Below are positions 1-62,036 of a DNA stretch of 64,000 nucleotides, piece by piece. The position numbers were made by a program, and so were the translations under genes. The DNA lies in the NCBI RefSeq assembly GCF_044647545.1, contig NZ_CP172818.1, one strand, 5' to 3'. The stretch comes from Escherichia coli (GTDB lineage Bacteria > Pseudomonadota > Gammaproteobacteria > Enterobacterales > Enterobacteriaceae). The stretch's first letter is position 1. Each line of letters opens with the position of its first letter. The notes under the pieces were generated by a model that was given only the letters and a program-made list of their open reading frames with translations, did no database searches and was not told the origin of the DNA.

Positions 1-574
1 CGTTCATTGGCGTGGCGATCGCCCCAGGTGCGACTGCGTTCACCAAAATTTTATGCCTGACCAACTCCAGCGCCATTGCTTTGGTTAACCCGCCGAGCGC
101 ATGTTTAGCGGCTGTGTAGGCGCTGGCATCCGGCAGCGGCGTATGTTCATGTACCGATGTAATGTTGATGATGCGACCGCCCTGCCCTTGCTTCACCATC
201 TGGCGGGCAGCAATTTGCGAGCATAAAAATGCACCATCGACATCAACGGTAAAAATCTTGCGCCACTCATCGAAAGCCATATCAAGAAACGGCGCTTTGG
301 TCATTGCGCCCGCATTATTCACCAGCACATCGATGCGCCCCAGTCGATGAATGAGTTTCTCCAGCGCCTGCGCACCTTCTGGCAGATTACCGAGATCCAG
401 CTGCACGATCTCCGCACGTACGCCGTGGCTAACCACCTCACGCGCAGTATCTTTTGCCCCTTCTTCATCTGAGTGCCAGGTAATACCAATATCAAACCCC
501 TGCTGCGCCAGTAATAACGCGCACTCTTTGCCGATCCCCGAATCGGAGGCGGTAATTATCGCGACCTGTGCCAT
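1..574 (-). CDS. yohF: Short-chain dehydrogenase/reductase YohF, 5' portion only (3' end lies beyond window start)
   Basis: Reverse-strand translation starts MAQVAIITASDSGIGKECALLLAQQGFDIGITWHSDEEG (Rossmann SDR motif); start codon complement at 572-574; reading frame runs off the window edge. Confidence 0.85.
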   Translation of the reverse strand, partial: MAQVAIITASDSGIGKECALLLAQQGFDIGITWHSDEEGAKDTAREVVSHGVRAEIVQLDLGNLPEGAQALEKLIHRLGRIDVLVNNAGAMTKAPFLDMAFDEWRKIFTVDVDGAFLCSQIAARQMVKQGQGGRIINITSVHEHTPLPDASAYTAAKHALGGLTKAMALELVRHKILVNAVAPGAIATPMN

Positions 575-626
575 CGAGTTCTCCACTTAACGCTGAATAA
601 ATGTTAAGTATAGAAGGCGCATATCA

Positions 627-2063
627 TCAGCGTTTGTAACCCCCGCCCAGCGCACCGGTGAGTTGAATGGAGGCATCCAGCCACTGCCCTTGCAATAACA
701 AGCCATTGGCCCGCTCACGCAGCGCGGGGATTCTGGCTTCGCTGACGCGGGAACCAGCAATGATGCCCGCGTTAAAGCGCGCCTGCGCAAGACCTACCAC
801 ACGCAAGGCATCGTGCTCAATTTGCGCCTGATGCTGGTTTTTCTCCGCCAGTGTCTGAACCTGGCTGGCCGCCCGCGCCACGTCATTCACCGCTTCAACC
901 ACCGCTTTGTTGTAGCTGGCGATAGACAAGTTGCTTTCGGCTTTTGCGATATCGAGGTTGGCGTTAAGACGACCACTATCGAAAATGGGTAGCGTCAGGC
1001 CTGCCGTAACGCCCATTTGCTGCGCGGAATGACGGAACAGATCGCTTAAGTGCAACGCATCCTGTTGCAGGAAGGCCATCAGGTTGATGTCAGGATAAAA
1101 TGCCGCTTTTGCCGCATCAATGGTGCTTAGCGATGACTCAACGTACCAGTGCGCCGCCTGCAAATCTGCCCGCCGCGCCAGTAAGGAGTACCCCAGTTCA
1201 TCAGGAAGCTGGCTTGCCACTTTCGGCAACGCGACCGGATTAAGCTTCAATGCCTTTGTCTGGTGATTTGTAAGTGCGCTTAACCGTGCCTCAATAATTT
1301 TCATTTTCCCCGCGACATCGTTGAGCTGCTGCCGGGTTTTGCTGGCATTAATATCGGTTTCCACACCTTCAACTGAAGAAGTAATCCCGTTCTGATATAG
1401 CTGGCGATCGGTGGCGATAATGGTGTTCTGCTCTTTTTCGATTTGCTGCAAGACCGTGTTTAACGCCGCCTGGGTTTGCCACTCCCAGTACAGGCGGGCT
1501 ACGCTGCCAGCCAGCAATTGGCGGGTTTGCTCGCGTTCCGCCACCCGTGCTTTAACCGTACCCAGGCGAGCAGTTACCTCCGCCCGATTCTTTCCCCAGA
1601 TATCGAGATGCCAGCCCGCCGTTAAGCCAAAAGTACCGTTGGTGTACCACGGACCGGTCGTACCTGCGGCAGGATCGTTCAAAGCAAACGGCCCCATTAA
1701 CCCTTCTGCCGACATTTTTTGCCGCTCCATATCCGCAGAAAAGTCGAGCTGTGGACCATCCTGAGTGGCAACTGCCTTCGCCTGGGCTTCAGCCAGCTGA
1801 ATGCGCTGTTCAGCCACCTGCATATCCGGTGCGTTCTGTAGTGCGTTATTAATTAATGAGGTGAGTTGATTATCGTGATACTCCAGCCACCATTGGCTGT
1901 CTGGCCAACCATTTTTCAGCGCCGTGGGTAATGCGGTGTCAACTTGTGCCGCGGGTGTTTGCTGGCTTAACGCCTGGCGGGTTTCATGCATAGGCGCACA
2001 CCCGGCTAGCATCAGTAACAGCGGAAAACAGGCGATGGCTGGATAAAAAGAATCACGATTCAT
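627..2063 (-). CDS. mdtQ: TolC/OprM-family outer membrane efflux lipoprotein MdtQ; uninterrupted ORF here
   Basis: Track ORF 627..2153; internal start chosen at MNRDSFYPAIACFPLLLMLAGC (lipoprotein signal with lipobox LAGC), giving 478 aa; ends GALGGGYKR. Confidence 0.85.
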   Translation of the reverse strand: MNRDSFYPAIACFPLLLMLAGCAPMHETRQALSQQTPAAQVDTALPTALKNGWPDSQWWLEYHDNQLTSLINNALQNAPDMQVAEQRIQLAEAQAKAVATQDGPQLDFSADMERQKMSAEGLMGPFALNDPAAGTTGPWYTNGTFGLTAGWHLDIWGKNRAEVTARLGTVKARVAEREQTRQLLAGSVARLYWEWQTQAALNTVLQQIEKEQNTIIATDRQLYQNGITSSVEGVETDINASKTRQQLNDVAGKMKIIEARLSALTNHQTKALKLNPVALPKVASQLPDELGYSLLARRADLQAAHWYVESSLSTIDAAKAAFYPDINLMAFLQQDALHLSDLFRHSAQQMGVTAGLTLPIFDSGRLNANLDIAKAESNLSIASYNKAVVEAVNDVARAASQVQTLAEKNQHQAQIEHDALRVVGLAQARFNAGIIAGSRVSEARIPALRERANGLLLQGQWLDASIQLTGALGGGYKR

Positions 2064-2286
2064 GGGGGAATAATCAGGTAAGAAAAGGTGCGCGGAGATT
2101 ACCGTGTGTTGCGATATATTTTTTAGTTTCGCGTGGCAATACATCAGTGGCAATAAAACGACATATCCAGAAAAATATACACTAAGCGAATGATATCTTC
2201 CGATTTATCTTAATCGTTTATGAATAGCGGCAAAGGGCTTCGTTTTTTCCTATACTTATTCAGCACTCACAAATAAAGGAACGCCA

Positions 2287-2370
2287 ATGAAAATTATACT
2301 CTGGGCTGTATTGATTATTTTCCTGATTGGGCTACTGGTGGTGACTGGCGTATTTAAGATGATATTTTAA
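2287..2370 (+). CDS. yohP: Small membrane protein YohP (27 aa)
   Basis: ATG at 2287, translation MKIILWAVLIIFLIGLLVVTGVFKMIF, stop TAA at 2368-2370; single hydrophobic helix; not in the ORF track because below its size cutoff. Confidence 0.8.
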   Translation: MKIILWAVLIIFLIGLLVVTGVFKMIF

Positions 2371-2742
2371 AATTAATTAATGTCATCAGGTCCGAAAATA
2401 ACGAGAATATTTCAGTCTCTCATCCTGTTGCGCTCCTGTCATGTGCATTGCTTCATATAATCACTGGCGCAAGGAGCGCGCAGGGGGCGGCCAATCGCCG
2501 CCGCCCCCTGCACCCCCGGGCTCTGGCGAACAAAATCGCCGCTGCGCGGTGCCCTCGGCTTATCCCTTACGGCTACCGGGTCGGGCGCGAGGTAACATCC
2601 CTGTAAAACGCGCCCTCAGCCCACATCCATGTGGGCTGCCCCGGCCTTCAGGGAACGCCTCGGCAATTTTGACGCCACCAAACAACCGTGCGGCCTATTG
2701 ATAAAGAGCTAACACATTGTCAAAAAACATCACTATGGTTTT

Positions 2743-3892: not shown

Positions 3893-5019
<1,127 letters not shown>

Positions 5020-5023
5020 AATT

Positions 5024-5059
5024 TGCGATGCGTCGCGCATTTTTGATGTAAGTTTCACG
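5024..5059 (+). promoter_or_regulatory. cdd promoter tandem CRP sites (TGCGATGCGTCGCGCA at 5024-5039 and TGATGTAAGTTTCACG at 5044-5059), with a candidate -10 CATAAT at 5065-5070
   Basis: Two TGTGA-N6-TCACA-like palindromes spaced about 20 bp apart upstream of cdd; matches the known CRP/CytR-regulated cdd promoter architecture. Confidence 0.6.
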
Positions 5060-5148
5060 CGTTGCATAATTAATGAGATTCAGATCACATATAAAGCCAT
5101 AACGGGTTCGTAAACTGTTATCCCATTACATGATTATGAGGCAACGCC

Positions 5149-7144
<1,996 letters not shown>

Positions 7145-25953: not shown

Positions 25954-27204
25954 CTACGCTAAACCAATAAAGAACCCGGCAATGGTGGCACTCATCAGGT
26001 TAGAAAGTGTCGCCGCCGCCAGCGCGCGTAAACCAAGCTGGGCGATTTCCGGCGCACGGTGTGGCGCAACCGCAGAAAACGCCCCCACCACCACCCCGAT
26101 AGAACCAAAGTTAGCGAAACCGCACAACGCGAAGGAAATAATCGCCACGGTTTTAGCATCCAGAGTGCCAGCTGTTTGCAGATAAGGTGAGAAATTGAGG
26201 TAAGCGACAAATTCATTTATTGCCAGTTTCTGTCCAATCAAACTCCCGGCAAGATTCGCATCACTCCAGTCAACACCCATTACCCACGCCAGTGGGGCCA
26301 GCAGGTAACCTAAAATGGACTCCAGCGAGGCATGTTCAAAACCAAACCAGCCGCCAACGCCGCCGATAATACCGTTAATCAACGCAATTATTGCAACAAA
26401 TGCCATCACCACTGTCGCCACACCTGCGGCGATTTTCAGCCCGGTCATTGCCCCTGTCGCAGCGGCTTCAATAATGCTTTTTGGCGGTGTTTCGGTGAAA
26501 GAGAGGTTATTAAAGGAAACCTGCGAAGATTCCGTGGCCGGACTTAACAGGCGAGCAAATAAGATCCCGCCAGGGATCGCCATTAACGATGCCGCCAGCA
26601 AATATTCCACAGGTACGCCCAGTGCGGCGTAACCAATCATTGTCGAACCAGCAATCGAGGCCATGCCACTACAAATCGCTGTAAATAATTCATTGCGATT
26701 CAGCCGATCGATAAAGGGTTTGACGATTGCCGGAATTTCGTTTTGCCCGAGGAAAATGGTAGTGACCGCGACGAATGACTCGATCTTGCTGATATTTAAT
26801 GCTTTCTGGAAGATACCGCCGAGAATGCGAATTAAGATCCCCATCACACCGATGTAGTAGAGAATACTCACCAGCGCGGTGACGAAGATAATTGCCGGTA
26901 ATACTCTGAAACCAAAGATAAATCCTGCACCATCAAACAGCGTGTCCATTTTCGGCCCGACCAGCGAACCGAAGATAAATGCGCTACCCGCGTCGCTGTA
27001 CGCCATCACTTTATGGACGCCAAAAGCGACTTTTTCAGCGACCCAACGCCCTGGCGGTAACCAAAGCATAATGCCGCCAATCACGACCTGTAACACTAAC
27101 GCCGCGCCAACGGTACGCAGGCTGATCCTCTTCTTGTTTACTGACAGCAAAAATGCAATTGCCAGCAATACCACCATTCCCAGAACACTTCTCATGACAT
27201 CCAT
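25954..27204 (-). CDS. nupX: NupC-family nucleoside permease NupX
   Basis: 416 aa, MDVMRSVLGMVVLLAIAFLLSVNKK; close paralog of PsuT in this window. Confidence 0.93.
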   Translation of the reverse strand: MDVMRSVLGMVVLLAIAFLLSVNKKRISLRTVGAALVLQVVIGGIMLWLPPGRWVAEKVAFGVHKVMAYSDAGSAFIFGSLVGPKMDTLFDGAGFIFGFRVLPAIIFVTALVSILYYIGVMGILIRILGGIFQKALNISKIESFVAVTTIFLGQNEIPAIVKPFIDRLNRNELFTAICSGMASIAGSTMIGYAALGVPVEYLLAASLMAIPGGILFARLLSPATESSQVSFNNLSFTETPPKSIIEAAATGAMTGLKIAAGVATVVMAFVAIIALINGIIGGVGGWFGFEHASLESILGYLLAPLAWVMGVDWSDANLAGSLIGQKLAINEFVAYLNFSPYLQTAGTLDAKTVAIISFALCGFANFGSIGVVVGAFSAVAPHRAPEIAQLGLRALAAATLSNLMSATIAGFFIGLA

Positions 27205-27303
27205 AGTTATTATCTCTTCATGTCATTTTGGGCGACGGCTTTCTGCCCATCAGAAATCGCCGGGCCTGCATCTTGCGATACTGTCCCGGCTTGTTATCAA
27301 CAC

Positions 27304-29141: not shown

Positions 29142-30392
29142 TCAAGCTAAACCAATAAAGAACCCGGCAATGGTCGCGCTCATCAGGTTGGAAAGCGTTG
29201 CTGCTGCCAGCGCCCGTAAACCAAGCTGAGCGATTTCCGGTGCGCGTTTTGGCGAAATAGCCGAAAATGCCCCAACGACAACACCGATAGAACCAAAGTT
29301 AGCAAAACCACAAAGCGCAAAGGAGATAATCGCAATGGTTTTCACTTCCAGCGTGCCGCCCGTTTGCAGGTATGGGGAGAAACTCAGGTAAGCGACGAAT
29401 TCGTTAATCGCCAGTTTCTGCCCAATCAGGCTACCCGCAAGATTGGCATCACTCCAGTCCACACCCATGATCCACGCCAGCGGTGCCAGCACATAGCCGA
29501 AAATACTTTCCAGAGAGGCATTGGCGAAACCAAACCAGCCGCCGATTCCGCCGATAATGCCGTTGATCAGCGCAATAATTGCGACAAACGCCATTACTAC
29601 CGTTGCTACACCAGCGGCGATTTTCAGCCCGGTCATCGCACCGCTCGCCGCTGCTTCGATAAAGCTTTTTGGCGGCGTTTCGCTGAACGATAAATTTTCA
29701 AATGTGACCTGCGAAGGCTCGGTTGCCGGGCTAAGAATACGTGCAAACAAAATCCCGCCAGGGATCGCCATCAGCGATGCCGCTAACAGGTAGTCAATTG
29801 GTACGCCCATTCCGGCATAACCGATCATCATCGAACCCGCAATGGACGCCATCCCGCTACAAATTGCAGTAAACAACTCGTTGCGATTCATGCGATCGAT
29901 AAACGGTTTAACGATCGCAGGGATCTCATTTTGCCCGAGGAAAATAGTGGTAACCGCAACAAAAGATTCGATTTTGCTGATGTTGAGAGCTTTCTGAAAA
30001 ATACTGCCAAGAATGCGGATTAGCAGCCCCATCACGCCAATGTAGTACAGCAGACTGATGAGCGCAGTAACGAAAATAATCGCCGGAAGTACGCGAAAGG
30101 CGAAGATAAAACCCGCACCGTCAAACAAGACATCCATTTTCGGCCCAACCAGCGAACCAAAAATGAAGGCGCTACCGGCATCACTGTAAGACATCACTTT
30201 ATGAACGCCTAATGCCGCCAGTTCAACTGCCCATTTTCCCGGTGGGAAGTAGAGCATGATGCCACCAATAGCGATTTGCAGCAGCAGCGCGGCTCCAACC
30301 GTGCGTAAACTGATGCTCTTTTTATTCACTGATAACAGAAATGCTATTACCAGTAACACCACCATCCCCACAACACTTCTCATTATATCCAT
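29142..30392 (-). CDS. psuT: NupC-family pseudouridine/nucleoside transporter PsuT (YeiM)
   Basis: 416 aa, MDIMRSVVGMVVLLVIAFLLSVNKK; near-identical in length and sequence to NupX. Confidence 0.92.
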   Translation of the reverse strand: MDIMRSVVGMVVLLVIAFLLSVNKKSISLRTVGAALLLQIAIGGIMLYFPPGKWAVELAALGVHKVMSYSDAGSAFIFGSLVGPKMDVLFDGAGFIFAFRVLPAIIFVTALISLLYYIGVMGLLIRILGSIFQKALNISKIESFVAVTTIFLGQNEIPAIVKPFIDRMNRNELFTAICSGMASIAGSMMIGYAGMGVPIDYLLAASLMAIPGGILFARILSPATEPSQVTFENLSFSETPPKSFIEAAASGAMTGLKIAAGVATVVMAFVAIIALINGIIGGIGGWFGFANASLESIFGYVLAPLAWIMGVDWSDANLAGSLIGQKLAINEFVAYLSFSPYLQTGGTLEVKTIAIISFALCGFANFGSIGVVVGAFSAISPKRAPEIAQLGLRALAAATLSNLMSATIAGFFIGLA

Positions 30393-30484
30393 AATGATTT
30401 CCCCTTCATACCAGTAAACCCGACGTCAGCGCCAGGTTCTGGTATGTATGATCATACGGGCGACGGCTTTCTGCCCGTCAGAAA

Positions 30485-59447: not shown

Positions 59448-62036
59448 TCAGAACGTCCAGACCACACCCGCCTGAGTATTCCACGGCGATTCTACCCCTG
59501 CGCCATTGCCATAACTGACTGACAAATGACCGCTTAACGTCGGGGTAAACGATGACCTTATCCCAGCCTGATAAACGCCACGGGTTCCAGCCACATCATT
59601 ATTAAATTTGCCATCGTCATTAACTTTCACCTGGTTAGAATCGGCGTATTCCTGACGTACGGCGGCTTTCAGCCAGGGTTCCAGCGTCGTACCGTTTTGC
59701 AGGTCCATGTGATAGCTTACCGCCGTTCCCGCTTCAGCCCGTAATATGCGGGTATTTCCCACATCCGCGCGCATGCCGTTTGATAACGTGTAGTCCTGAC
59801 CATCTGTGGTAAAGCCGGTAAAGGCCAGATAAGGTCTAACACTCCACAATCCGTCAACCCAACGGAACCCGCTCTCGACATGAGCACCCGCGCCGTTACT
59901 ATTGTAATCGCCAAACGCTGTTGCCCCATTACTCATCTTGCCATGGATGGTGTTGGCAAAACGGTCAACTTTCACCACCCCATCAACATAGGCACCGTTC
60001 TGATGCTCCCAACCGGCATAAGCCCCCAGGGTATAGCTATCGACATTGCCTTTGCCGCCGCGATCAAAACCAATATCAGAATGAGAGTAACCAAAGAACA
60101 AGCCGCGAATTGTACTGCTTTCTTCACGGGAGAAACGGCTATCGATACCGAGCGTCAGCCCCGTCAATGTTTGCTCAAAGCCAGCTCCCGCATCAGTGGT
60201 CACGTTGTTGCGGGTGTTAATTGCCGAACTCCACATCGCCGTATCGTAATTAACGCCTTTTACGCTACCAAGACGCTCACGCACGGTGTCCAGTTCTGCA
60301 TCAAATACCAGCGGTTGTGCTGCCGCCATATTCAGCACATCAGTGGTTGAAGGGGTAATTTGCGCGCGATTCTCTGCCAGACTCCAGCTATGGTTGCCAT
60401 TATCCAGCAAGGTATATTCATACGTACCGATATCAACAACGCCTCCGGCATTGCCCAACGTAAATGCAGCATCACCGCCGCCCGTCGTTACCAGTGTAAG
60501 GCTATCTCCTGCTGCCGGGCTGGCACCGGTGTCCGTAACGAATATTTTGAAATCACCTGTTGCCTGACCGGTGACGTTGAGCTGATCGCTCTGATGATTA
60601 GCCATATCGGTACGCATATAAAAATTGCCGTTTCCCGACAGGGTATTGGTGGTCAACGTAATGAAATTTTCCGCACTTGCCGTCACTGATGAACGAGTCA
60701 CTGGCTCATCCATCATAATCACATTTGCGTCAGACATCGCAAGGTTGGCTAAGTTGAGGAGGGTGTTTTGGTTCGTCGTAGTGATATCGGCAATGATGGT
60801 CCATGAGCTACCATCGAGCGAAACATCCGCTTTGCTGGTATCCACGGCACCATGCGTTCTTAAAGAAGCGCCCTCAGAAACCACGACACTACCCACCAAC
60901 ATAGCGGGTGCATAATTTATTTGCGGCTTCATGACCTCAAGAATGCCATCATTCCCTCTGACTGAAACGTTAACCATCGTGCCAGCCCAGACATTAGCGC
61001 GGCCATTGTTGATAACCATATTTTCAGAGATGGCTTTAGAGGAATACGTGATACTTCCATTCTGATCTGATCGACCGAGATCATACACCGCATTTGCCTG
61101 CACTCTCGTACCAGTATCCTTTCCCAGCGATTGCATAGTGGCATGCTCATCAAGGATAGTGTCAATGGCCTGCGTGTCCTCCATAACAATGAGCCCGGAA
61201 CCATCATCCAGTTCATAATTTTTTGACACACCATCTTTTATACTAAATTGGCCTTTACTGTTTGTACCACTCACTTCCAGCGCATTCGTTGAGACAATTA
61301 ATTTTCCGCCTGCTTTTTTATCAACGCCAGTTGCAGTCCCGCCATCCATAACCTCCAGTAAGCCGCCATTATCCACAGTGGTATTATAAGCGAAGTCATT
61401 TTCTTCAACTCGCAAACTTCCGCCGTTTTCCAACAGCATATTATTAGCAATACCATTCTTGATATCGAACTGACCGAGACGGTTTGTTCCGAATACCTCC
61501 ATGGCCCGCGTGGTTGTTTTAATCGCACCGCCTGCTTTCTGATCTACCGCAAGCGCAAATCCCCCCTCTTTAACCTCCAGTAGTCCTCCCTTTTCGATAG
61601 CGGCAAAGACGGTCCCCCCATCTTTTTCAACGATTAAGCGCCCGCCTTTAATCGTAGGTTCATTCGCCGCGCCATAAACCTGTAGCACACCATTATTGAG
61701 GGTAGTCTGGTTTGCCGCGCCACCCATTTGAACAATTTGATAACCATCATTTAATACTGAGTATTCTGCGGTGCCATTCATTTCAATGTACTGATACCCG
61801 CCGTTAATTTCAGTATTACTACTTATACCAAATTCTTTAATATGCTGTTCTCCGCCAGGATTGATTTTCGTATTATTGGCAGTCCCATAAACCAGCTGGA
61901 TATCTTTTTCCAGGACAACACCATCAACTGTCTCACCATACTCAACTGTTGATGCCAATGCTATGGGTGATAACGCTGTAGCCACCAGAACAGATATTGC
62001 GGAACGACAAAGAGAAACAGAACCAGATTGATGCAT
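59448..62036 (-). CDS. yejO: Adhesin-like autotransporter YejO (passenger with repeats plus C-terminal beta-barrel); uninterrupted here
   Basis: 862 aa; N-terminal signal peptide MHQSGSVSLCRSAISVLVATALSPIALA; repetitive Gly/Asn/Thr-rich passenger; C-terminal barrel ending AGVVWTF. Confidence 0.88.
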   Translation of the reverse strand: MHQSGSVSLCRSAISVLVATALSPIALASTVEYGETVDGVVLEKDIQLVYGTANNTKINPGGEQHIKEFGISSNTEINGGYQYIEMNGTAEYSVLNDGYQIVQMGGAANQTTLNNGVLQVYGAANEPTIKGGRLIVEKDGGTVFAAIEKGGLLEVKEGGFALAVDQKAGGAIKTTTRAMEVFGTNRLGQFDIKNGIANNMLLENGGSLRVEENDFAYNTTVDNGGLLEVMDGGTATGVDKKAGGKLIVSTNALEVSGTNSKGQFSIKDGVSKNYELDDGSGLIVMEDTQAIDTILDEHATMQSLGKDTGTRVQANAVYDLGRSDQNGSITYSSKAISENMVINNGRANVWAGTMVNVSVRGNDGILEVMKPQINYAPAMLVGSVVVSEGASLRTHGAVDTSKADVSLDGSSWTIIADITTTNQNTLLNLANLAMSDANVIMMDEPVTRSSVTASAENFITLTTNTLSGNGNFYMRTDMANHQSDQLNVTGQATGDFKIFVTDTGASPAAGDSLTLVTTGGGDAAFTLGNAGGVVDIGTYEYTLLDNGNHSWSLAENRAQITPSTTDVLNMAAAQPLVFDAELDTVRERLGSVKGVNYDTAMWSSAINTRNNVTTDAGAGFEQTLTGLTLGIDSRFSREESSTIRGLFFGYSHSDIGFDRGGKGNVDSYTLGAYAGWEHQNGAYVDGVVKVDRFANTIHGKMSNGATAFGDYNSNGAGAHVESGFRWVDGLWSVRPYLAFTGFTTDGQDYTLSNGMRADVGNTRILRAEAGTAVSYHMDLQNGTTLEPWLKAAVRQEYADSNQVKVNDDGKFNNDVAGTRGVYQAGIRSSFTPTLSGHLSVSYGNGAGVESPWNTQAGVVWTF

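Follow-up and report, generated by a model that had tools for sequence, protein, structure and literature searches.

The locus examined here raises the question of what an intact mdtQ gene in a strain of Escherichia coli signifies when the K-12 copy is a frameshifted pseudogene, and which transport system its product might serve. The window, a stretch of 64,000 nucleotides, contains one open frame at positions 627-2063 of the minus strand. According to the ORF listing and its translation, this frame runs from an ATG at 2063 to a TGA at 629-627 and encodes 478 amino acids. The longest possible ORF begins with a TTG at 2153 (508 amino acids); the orthologs and RefSeq take the ATG at 2063. The product is identical to RefSeq WP_022645876.1, the protein given in the annotations of ECONIH1 and WP5-S18-ESBL-08, and window positions 1-2372 are 100% identical at the DNA level to genomes that annotate WP_022645876.1 as mdtQ. 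The following features of the gene and its product were assigned.

627..2063, minus strand: mdtQ (yohG) coding sequence, 478 codons plus TGA stop
1998..2063, minus strand: lipoprotein signal peptide, residues 1-22, read from the sequence (n-region with Arg3, then a hydrophobic core, then the lipobox L19-A20-G21-C22)
1266..1859, minus strand: first OEP repeat, residues 69-266, from the best PF02321 stretch (69-266) and the secondary structure of the model
648..1193, minus strand: second OEP repeat, about residues 291-472, with approximate limits taken from the secondary structure of the model (second helix-strand-strand-helix unit), not from Pfam coordinates

The identity of the protein was established by family models. 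The MdtQ equivalog model NCBIfam NF008524 matched residues 1-478 of 478 with 1023.5 bits (cut-off 650). The model TIGR01845, which describes the NodT/OprM-type lipoprotein outer-membrane factor subfamily, scored 272.2 bits (cut-off 210.05), and Pfam OEP PF02321 scored 104.8 bits (cut-off 22) over two stretches that correspond to two tandem OEP repeats. Both the ORF and its family match far exceed chance, and the family signature residues are retained in MdtQ in an alignment of 50 homologs. What stands at window positions 627-2063 is thus mdtQ (formerly yohG/yohH), a core gene of the Enterobacteriaceae, in its unbroken wild-type form; no observation speaks against this identity. An earlier note on this DNA had claimed a single intact mdtQ ORF of 478 amino acids; translation and the full-length NF008524 match bear this out and add the strand, minus, which the note had not given.

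The N terminus reads MNRDSFYPAIACFPLLLMLAGC, followed by APM. The codon of the lipobox cysteine, Cys22, lies at window positions 1998-2000 in the local context LLLMLAGC22 followed by Ala, and the cysteine column is invariant across the 50 homologs. The lipoprotein signal had been quoted previously as LLAGC; the lipobox cysteine was correctly recognized, whereas the quoted letters are one residue off, since the actual sequence is LMLAGC. Sorting of bacterial lipoproteins is governed by the residue that follows the lipobox cysteine (the +2 rule). As residue +2 of MdtQ is an alanine, sorting to the outer membrane would be expected.

The surroundings of the gene are those of the core chromosome. 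The window extends from yohF to ccmH, and the order yohF-mdtQ-yohP-dusC, with the same flanks, is found in K-12 and in 78 Enterobacteriaceae representatives, so that the position of mdtQ is orthologous. The neighboring features are listed below, together with a distant gene that bears on the lineage.

1..574, minus strand: yohF (SDR oxidoreductase), incomplete at the window edge, 52 nucleotides downstream of mdtQ on the same strand
2064..2286, no strand assigned: divergent intergenic region between mdtQ and yohP, presumed site of the mdtQ promoter; includes the IS1 target at 2197-2205
2287..2370, plus strand: yohP, gene of a 27-amino acid small membrane protein, divergent neighbor of mdtQ
59448..62036, minus strand: yejO autotransporter ORF, intact, 862 amino acids, annotated as yejO in ECONIH1

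The adjacency of an outer-membrane factor gene followed by an SDR gene, as in mdtQ-yohF, is preserved at 31 of 79 related loci, and no terminator-like site was found in the 52 nucleotides between the two genes. A repeat search between mdtQ and dusC returned only short GC-rich repeats, consistent with a TRIP1c/REP-like element. An Rfam scan of the whole window detected only tRNA-Pro and the L25 leader, with nothing near mdtQ.

With regard to lineage, the identity of the window amounts to 98.0% with K-12 and to 99.8-99.98% with ST648/phylogroup F genomes, in agreement with the previous suggestion of an E. coli other than MG1655. ECONIH1, MS6198, and MS14385 belong to ST648, and the phylogroup listed for MS6198 is F. 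The window is collinear with the annotated ECONIH1 stretch at 99.84-99.98% identity, in which there is no transposase gene; the absence of IS elements from the 64 kb, asserted in the earlier note, was thereby confirmed. The same applies to the intact yejO, which in K-12 is a pseudogene split by IS5. However, the further idea of an IS-free lineage is rejected: in several of the genomes nearest to the window, a 768-bp IS1 lies between mdtQ and yohP, 142 bp upstream of mdtQ, accompanied by a 9-bp duplication of its target (window positions 2197-2205).

To compare the window with K-12, a global alignment of the two mdtQ coding sequences was made. It contained 33 substitutions and one deleted A in a run of five, located as follows.

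1912..1916, minus strand: A5 homopolymer (T5 on the plus strand), coding sequence nucleotides 148-152, codons Lys50-Asn51; A4 in K-12

The A4 run at nucleotides 148-152 leads to 19 wrong codons and then a stop, so that the K-12 frame is over after 69 codons. The truncation falls just before the nearly invariant W53-P54 motif (numbering of the 50-homolog alignment, one below the true number). In the annotation of K-12 ER3413, mdtQ is flagged as frameshifted. The earlier note was therefore correct in describing K-12 mdtQ as a pseudogene; an identical intact ORF in K-12, which the note had named as speaking against it, was not seen, and the alignment places the lesion in the change from A5 to A4. 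The K-12-type allele is absent from the window, where A5 stands at 1912-1916 and the frame is open. After repair of the frameshift, K-12 MdtQ differs from the window allele at 6 amino acids. The repaired K-12 gene is only one synonymous site apart from that of BL21, from which it follows that the frameshift is recent. The K-12 pseudogene is a recent, lineage-specific deletion of one nucleotide, and the intact frame is the ancestral state.

A short homopolymer is a classic place for sequencing errors, and the difference between A5 and A4 could in principle be an artefact of either sequence, the window or the K-12 reference. Against this, among 5426 complete E. coli genomes the 88-mer with A5 around the site was matched exactly in 4473 and the K-12 87-mer with A4 in 355, all independent complete assemblies, both counts being exact matches of the segment at the frameshift site and not counts of whole ORFs. 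Furthermore, a run of 4-5 bases is too short to invite errors in finished genomes. On these population counts of the two segments an artefact was dismissed as extremely improbable. The remaining ~580 genomes carry substitutions within the 87/88-nucleotide segment and fall in neither allele count. Among the 40 A4 matches listed, nearly all were laboratory strains (MG1655, DH5alpha, C600, J53, and lab-evolved lines), with a few of unstated provenance.

In E. coli, an intact mdtQ is thus overwhelmingly the rule, to which the K-12 pseudogene forms the exception. RefSeq annotates the intact gene in Nissle 1917 (B2), BL21(DE3), O157:H7, O111, and the calf isolate TK3887. At the level of the family, mdtQ was found in 78 Enterobacteriaceae species representatives (one genome per species) with 65-98% identity, in all cases between dusC and yohF/yohD/yohC; 75 of the 78 gave a single full-length match at the syntenic locus, and in 3 the match was fragmented. 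The orthologs are 478-479 amino acids long, with identities of 98% for the main E. coli cluster, 94% for E. albertii, and 80-82% for Salmonella and Citrobacter. The particular sequence variant is less widespread, as window positions 500-2300 reached at least 99% identity in only 64 of 5423 matching records. A 2025 review (PMC11762307) likewise places mdtQ in the conserved core genome of E. coli, although it is annotated as a pseudogene, and cites the O157 MdtQ protein (UniProt Q8X659). With intactness the default in E. coli and the Enterobacteriaceae, the open frame in the window shows only that the strain is no K-12 derivative.

Losses were also found. The gene is lost in the representatives of C. 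koseri, C. amalonaticus, and Leclercia, and is split by IS421 in E. coli OkiPb01706; genome H40 matched only 5% of the query over the mdtQ region. Independent truncations are described in some Salmonella Typhi and Paratyphi A isolates. Such repeated independent losses imply that the gene is dispensable, at least in some niches.

Whether the intact gene is active was considered on the basis of its upstream region and its pattern of substitution. A promoter and terminator scan of positions 400-2800 gave no more matches than shuffled sequences, none of them well placed for mdtQ, and no consensus sigma-70 promoter above chance. A Shine-Dalgarno-like purine run is absent before the ATG (...CCTGATTATTCCCC-ATG), and the promoter is described in a review as lacking experimental confirmation. 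These features would suit a gene that is intact and effectively silent, a cryptic or decaying orphan that is barely expressed and makes no measurable contribution. The same reading would be in line with the lack of a partner in cis, with the independent inactivation of mdtQ in K-12, OkiPb01706, Typhi/Paratyphi A, and three other species representatives, and with the literature, in which the function of MdtQ is described as not elucidated. However, a dN/dS of ~0.07-0.12 across phylogroups speaks against neutral decay, and so does the fact that 75 of 78 Enterobacteriaceae representatives, at identities down to 65%, have kept the ORF in full length and in place; the lipobox cysteine and the family signature residues are conserved as well. 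We therefore regard a silent gene as unlikely.

The dN/dS values between phylogroup alleles, calculated for pairs with at least 30 differences, ranged from 0.065 to 0.12, which indicates strong purifying selection at the sequence level. This signature argues for natural use of mdtQ, and the gene may be functional in the lineage of the window, consistent with such selection. [quoted passage not shown] Such phenotypes of a null mutation would be puzzling if the strain background were K-12. The puromycin, acriflavine, and TPA phenotypes are said to come from Sulavik 2001 as the primary source.

To assess the structure of the protein, an AlphaFold2 monomer model was calculated on 50 homologs and yielded a pLDDT of 84.4 and a pTM of 0.79. 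The model contains strands at residues 104-115, 138-152, 324-335, and 347-356 (numbering one below the true number) and helices of ~70 residues. MdtQ is accordingly predicted to adopt the protomer fold of an outer-membrane factor, with four beta-strands in two hairpins, long alpha-helical hairpins, and an equatorial domain. A Foldseek search of the PDB with the model returned 44 matches with E values of 0.001 or lower, all of them outer-membrane factors, and the top 25 had E values between 3e-23 and 1.3e-18. VceC, OprN, CmeC, CusC, SilC, and OprM were the best matches at E values of ~1e-22 and TM scores up to 0.86; MtrE was also matched, and TolC was weaker.

From knowledge of the family, a mode of action can be proposed. 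MdtQ would be acylated at Cys22 and then carried to the outer membrane by the Lol system. There, a trimer would form a 12-stranded beta-barrel continued by a long alpha-helical tunnel in the periplasm, which would act as exit duct of an inner-membrane pump through tip-to-tip docking with a periplasmic adaptor.

The genes for such a pump and adaptor were sought in the window and at the related loci. No adaptor or pump gene was found in the window or adjoining mdtQ at any of the 78 ortholog loci. When AaeX/A/B, YdhI/J/K, and YtcA/MdtN/O were used as tblastn queries against 79 related loci, an adaptor was detected only beside a Burkholderiales homolog of 32% identity. A 4-5 kb insert upstream of the gene in Klebsiella, Enterobacter, and Kluyvera was considered as a pump locus and discarded, as it consists of a bgl-type PTS/beta-glucosidase operon and a gene for a methyltransferase or a porin. 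Because pump and adaptor genes are missing at all ortholog loci, MdtQ is an ancestral orphan.

The 10 nearest non-orthologous cluster representatives share 35-42% identity with MdtQ. Five of these are located in (YtcA-)MFP-FUSC-OMF operons with the outer-membrane factor gene in last position, three adjoin an MFS pump gene and an EmrA/HlyD-type adaptor gene, and two were undecided. No RND pump gene was found adjoining any of these 10 relatives, at any of the 78 ortholog loci or in the window. In a rough NJ tree without bootstrap, the sister clade of MdtQ consists of the MdtP-type outer-membrane factors of FUSC operons. It therefore appears more likely that MdtQ works with a FUSC/PET- or MFS-type pump and an EmrA/AaeA-type adaptor, encoded elsewhere in the genome, than with an RND pump; the sole basis of this assignment is the paralogs at 35-42% identity and the unbootstrapped NJ tree.

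A partner of the RND type had been implied in the earlier note, and MdtQ could also be seen as an alternative duct for RND pumps, either as a back-up of TolC or as the partner of an RND system that has no outer-membrane factor of its own. The TIGR01845 subfamily to which MdtQ belongs holds many RND partners (OprM, OprN, OprJ, CusC, and AdeK), and RND-linked outer-membrane factors are good structural matches to MdtQ. However, the nearest relatives point to FUSC and MFS pumps, with five of 10 beside FUSC genes, three beside MFS genes with EmrA-type adaptors, and none beside an RND gene. VceC, the nearest homolog of solved structure, and MdtP, the nearest paralog, both serve non-RND pumps. In addition, the scores of MdtQ on the AdeK (120 bits), AdeC and CusC-type (97 bits) models are far below their cut-offs, compared with 355 bits on the MdtP model. 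An RND partner is therefore considered improbable.

With a FUSC- or MFS-type pump as the preferred partner, the candidates within E. coli can be named. Besides ytcA-mdtNOP, the species encodes ydhIJK and aaeXAB, two DUF1656-adaptor-FUSC trios that lack a gene for an outer-membrane factor, and in a major review the outer-membrane partner of AaeAB is entered as "?". It is conceivable, and we put it forward with low confidence, that MdtQ is the missing exit duct of the FUSC-type pump AaeXAB (aromatic carboxylic acid efflux) or of YdhIJK in natural E. coli. A pairing of this kind would have stayed hidden because nearly all efflux genetics has been done in K-12, where mdtQ is frameshifted.

Taken together, the observations are very probably explained by a wild-type core mdtQ gene whose product is predicted to have the outer-membrane-factor fold and would act as an exit duct for a pump encoded elsewhere, and which in K-12 has suffered a recent A5 to A4 lesion. 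The intact mdtQ of the window is real, correctly identified, ordinary, and already known. It carries little weight as a discovery, since RefSeq annotation and PMC11762307 already document the gene, the K-12 frameshift, and the conservation in E. coli. The consequences concern mainly how K-12 data are read. Since K-12 is by nature an mdtQ null, nothing can be learned about MdtQ from efflux phenotypes or pump-to-channel assignments obtained in this strain. In natural isolates, among them multidrug-resistant ST648-type strains that resemble the window, a fourth, predicted outer-membrane channel is present under purifying selection. The survey of neighborhoods leaves FUSC- or MFS-type pumps with EmrA/AaeA-type adaptors as the candidate partners, a testable but modest hypothesis.

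The comparison with known outer-membrane factors places MdtQ at different distances from the characterized proteins. TolC serves most of the known tripartite pumps of E. coli. It shares 12-13% identity with MdtQ and is not lipidated; on the TolC-type model TIGR01844, MdtQ scored 54 bits (cut-off 225). Among homologs of solved structure, VceC of Vibrio cholerae (PDB 1yc9) ranks first, with an E value of 1.9e-39 by sequence and of 3e-23 by fold (TMt 0.86). The identity between the two proteins is ~26%, and VceC is encoded together with an MFS pump (VceCAB), whereas MdtQ is encoded without a pump gene. The closest E. coli paralog is MdtP (YjcP, from ytcA-mdtNOP), with 355 bits on the MdtP model and 36% identity. 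MdtP is likewise a lipoprotein outer-membrane factor, about as long as MdtQ, and falls into the sister clade in the rough NJ tree without bootstrap. MdtP is encoded beside the adaptor MdtN and the FUSC-type pump MdtO, whereas MdtQ is an orphan; moreover, MdtQ scores below the cut-off of the MdtP model (597 bits) and is therefore not an MdtP. The K-12 pseudogene (b2139, yohG/yohH) is the same gene at the same position as in the window, with 97.8% nucleotide identity, and differs by having A4 instead of A5 and a frame of only 69 codons. The MdtQ proteins of the Enterobacteriaceae (NF008524) are the same in kind as the window gene, which is a full-length equivalog at the same locus, dusC-yohP-mdtQ-yohF-yohD, and whose allele WP_022645876.1 is the ST648/phylogroup F variant of MdtQ.

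The region immediately preceding the start codon of the outer-membrane channel gene mdtQ (yohG) was inspected for signals of translation initiation.

Window 2064-2090, minus strand: pre-start region of mdtQ, …CTTACCTGATTATTCCCC-ATG

No Shine-Dalgarno-like purine run was detected in the 20 nt preceding the start codon, and this absence suggests that translation of mdtQ is initiated weakly or unconventionally. The gene is co-directional with yohF and separated from it by a gap of 52 nt (window 575-626), where scanning revealed no terminator-like hairpin. The order of an outer-membrane factor (OMF) gene followed by an SDR gene was seen in 31 of the 79 related loci surveyed for mdtQ gene neighborhoods, as well as in a metagenomic ortholog with 60% identity. 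Co-transcription of mdtQ and yohF is possible; in that case, the mdtQ frameshift of K-12 could be polar on yohF. In the Nissle 1917 assembly NZ_CM189243.1, the annotation of the neighboring yohF (positions 1-75 of locus L005) is that of a pseudogene interrupted by an internal stop, and mdtQ is intact.

On the upstream side of mdtQ, WP5-S18-ESBL-08 carries a 768-bp IS1 in the mdtQ-yohP intergenic region (positions 4707-5474 of its locus, L002). The element precedes the ATG of mdtQ by 142 bp and is flanked by a 9-bp target duplication, the target corresponding to window 2197-2205. An IS1 at this location might change the expression of mdtQ or yohP. At least three further close relatives appear to have an insertion within the same 25-kb stretch, judging by an alignment in three pieces and one additional feature name.

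In the gap between yohP and dusC, window 2420-2688 aligned with ST648 genomes in reverse orientation only, at 88.5% identity; outside this segment, the alignment of these genomes to the window showed 99.9% identity. K-12 was collinear across the segment. A published study maps the repeat TRIP1c to exactly this position, 43 bp downstream of yohI/dusC and 363 bp upstream of yohG; according to the same study, TRIP1 repeats are found in either orientation and bring about rearrangements of the chromosome (PMC10888264). The interval between dusC and mdtQ contains an inserted bgl-like operon in Klebsiella, Kluyvera, and Enterobacter (loci L055, L057, L059, L060, L062, L076, and L093). The operon comprises genes for a PTS EIIBCA, a family-1 glycosidase, and a BglG-type antiterminator, with an OprB/KdgM porin gene or a methyltransferase gene nearby.

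Elsewhere in the window, nupX and psuT (25958-27222 and 29146-30409), which encode paralogous NupC-family nucleoside transporters, cross-matched at ~79% identity, and this match is ordinary. An Rfam scan of the full 64 kb returned the first two features below as its sole matches; the third is an intact ORF.

Window 55528-55553, plus strand: L25 ribosomal-protein leader, upstream of rplY
Window 59269-59342, plus strand: tRNA-Pro
Window 59448-62036, minus strand: yejO, autotransporter, 862 aa

In ECONIH1, yejO is intact as in the window, whereas the K-12 copy is split by IS5.
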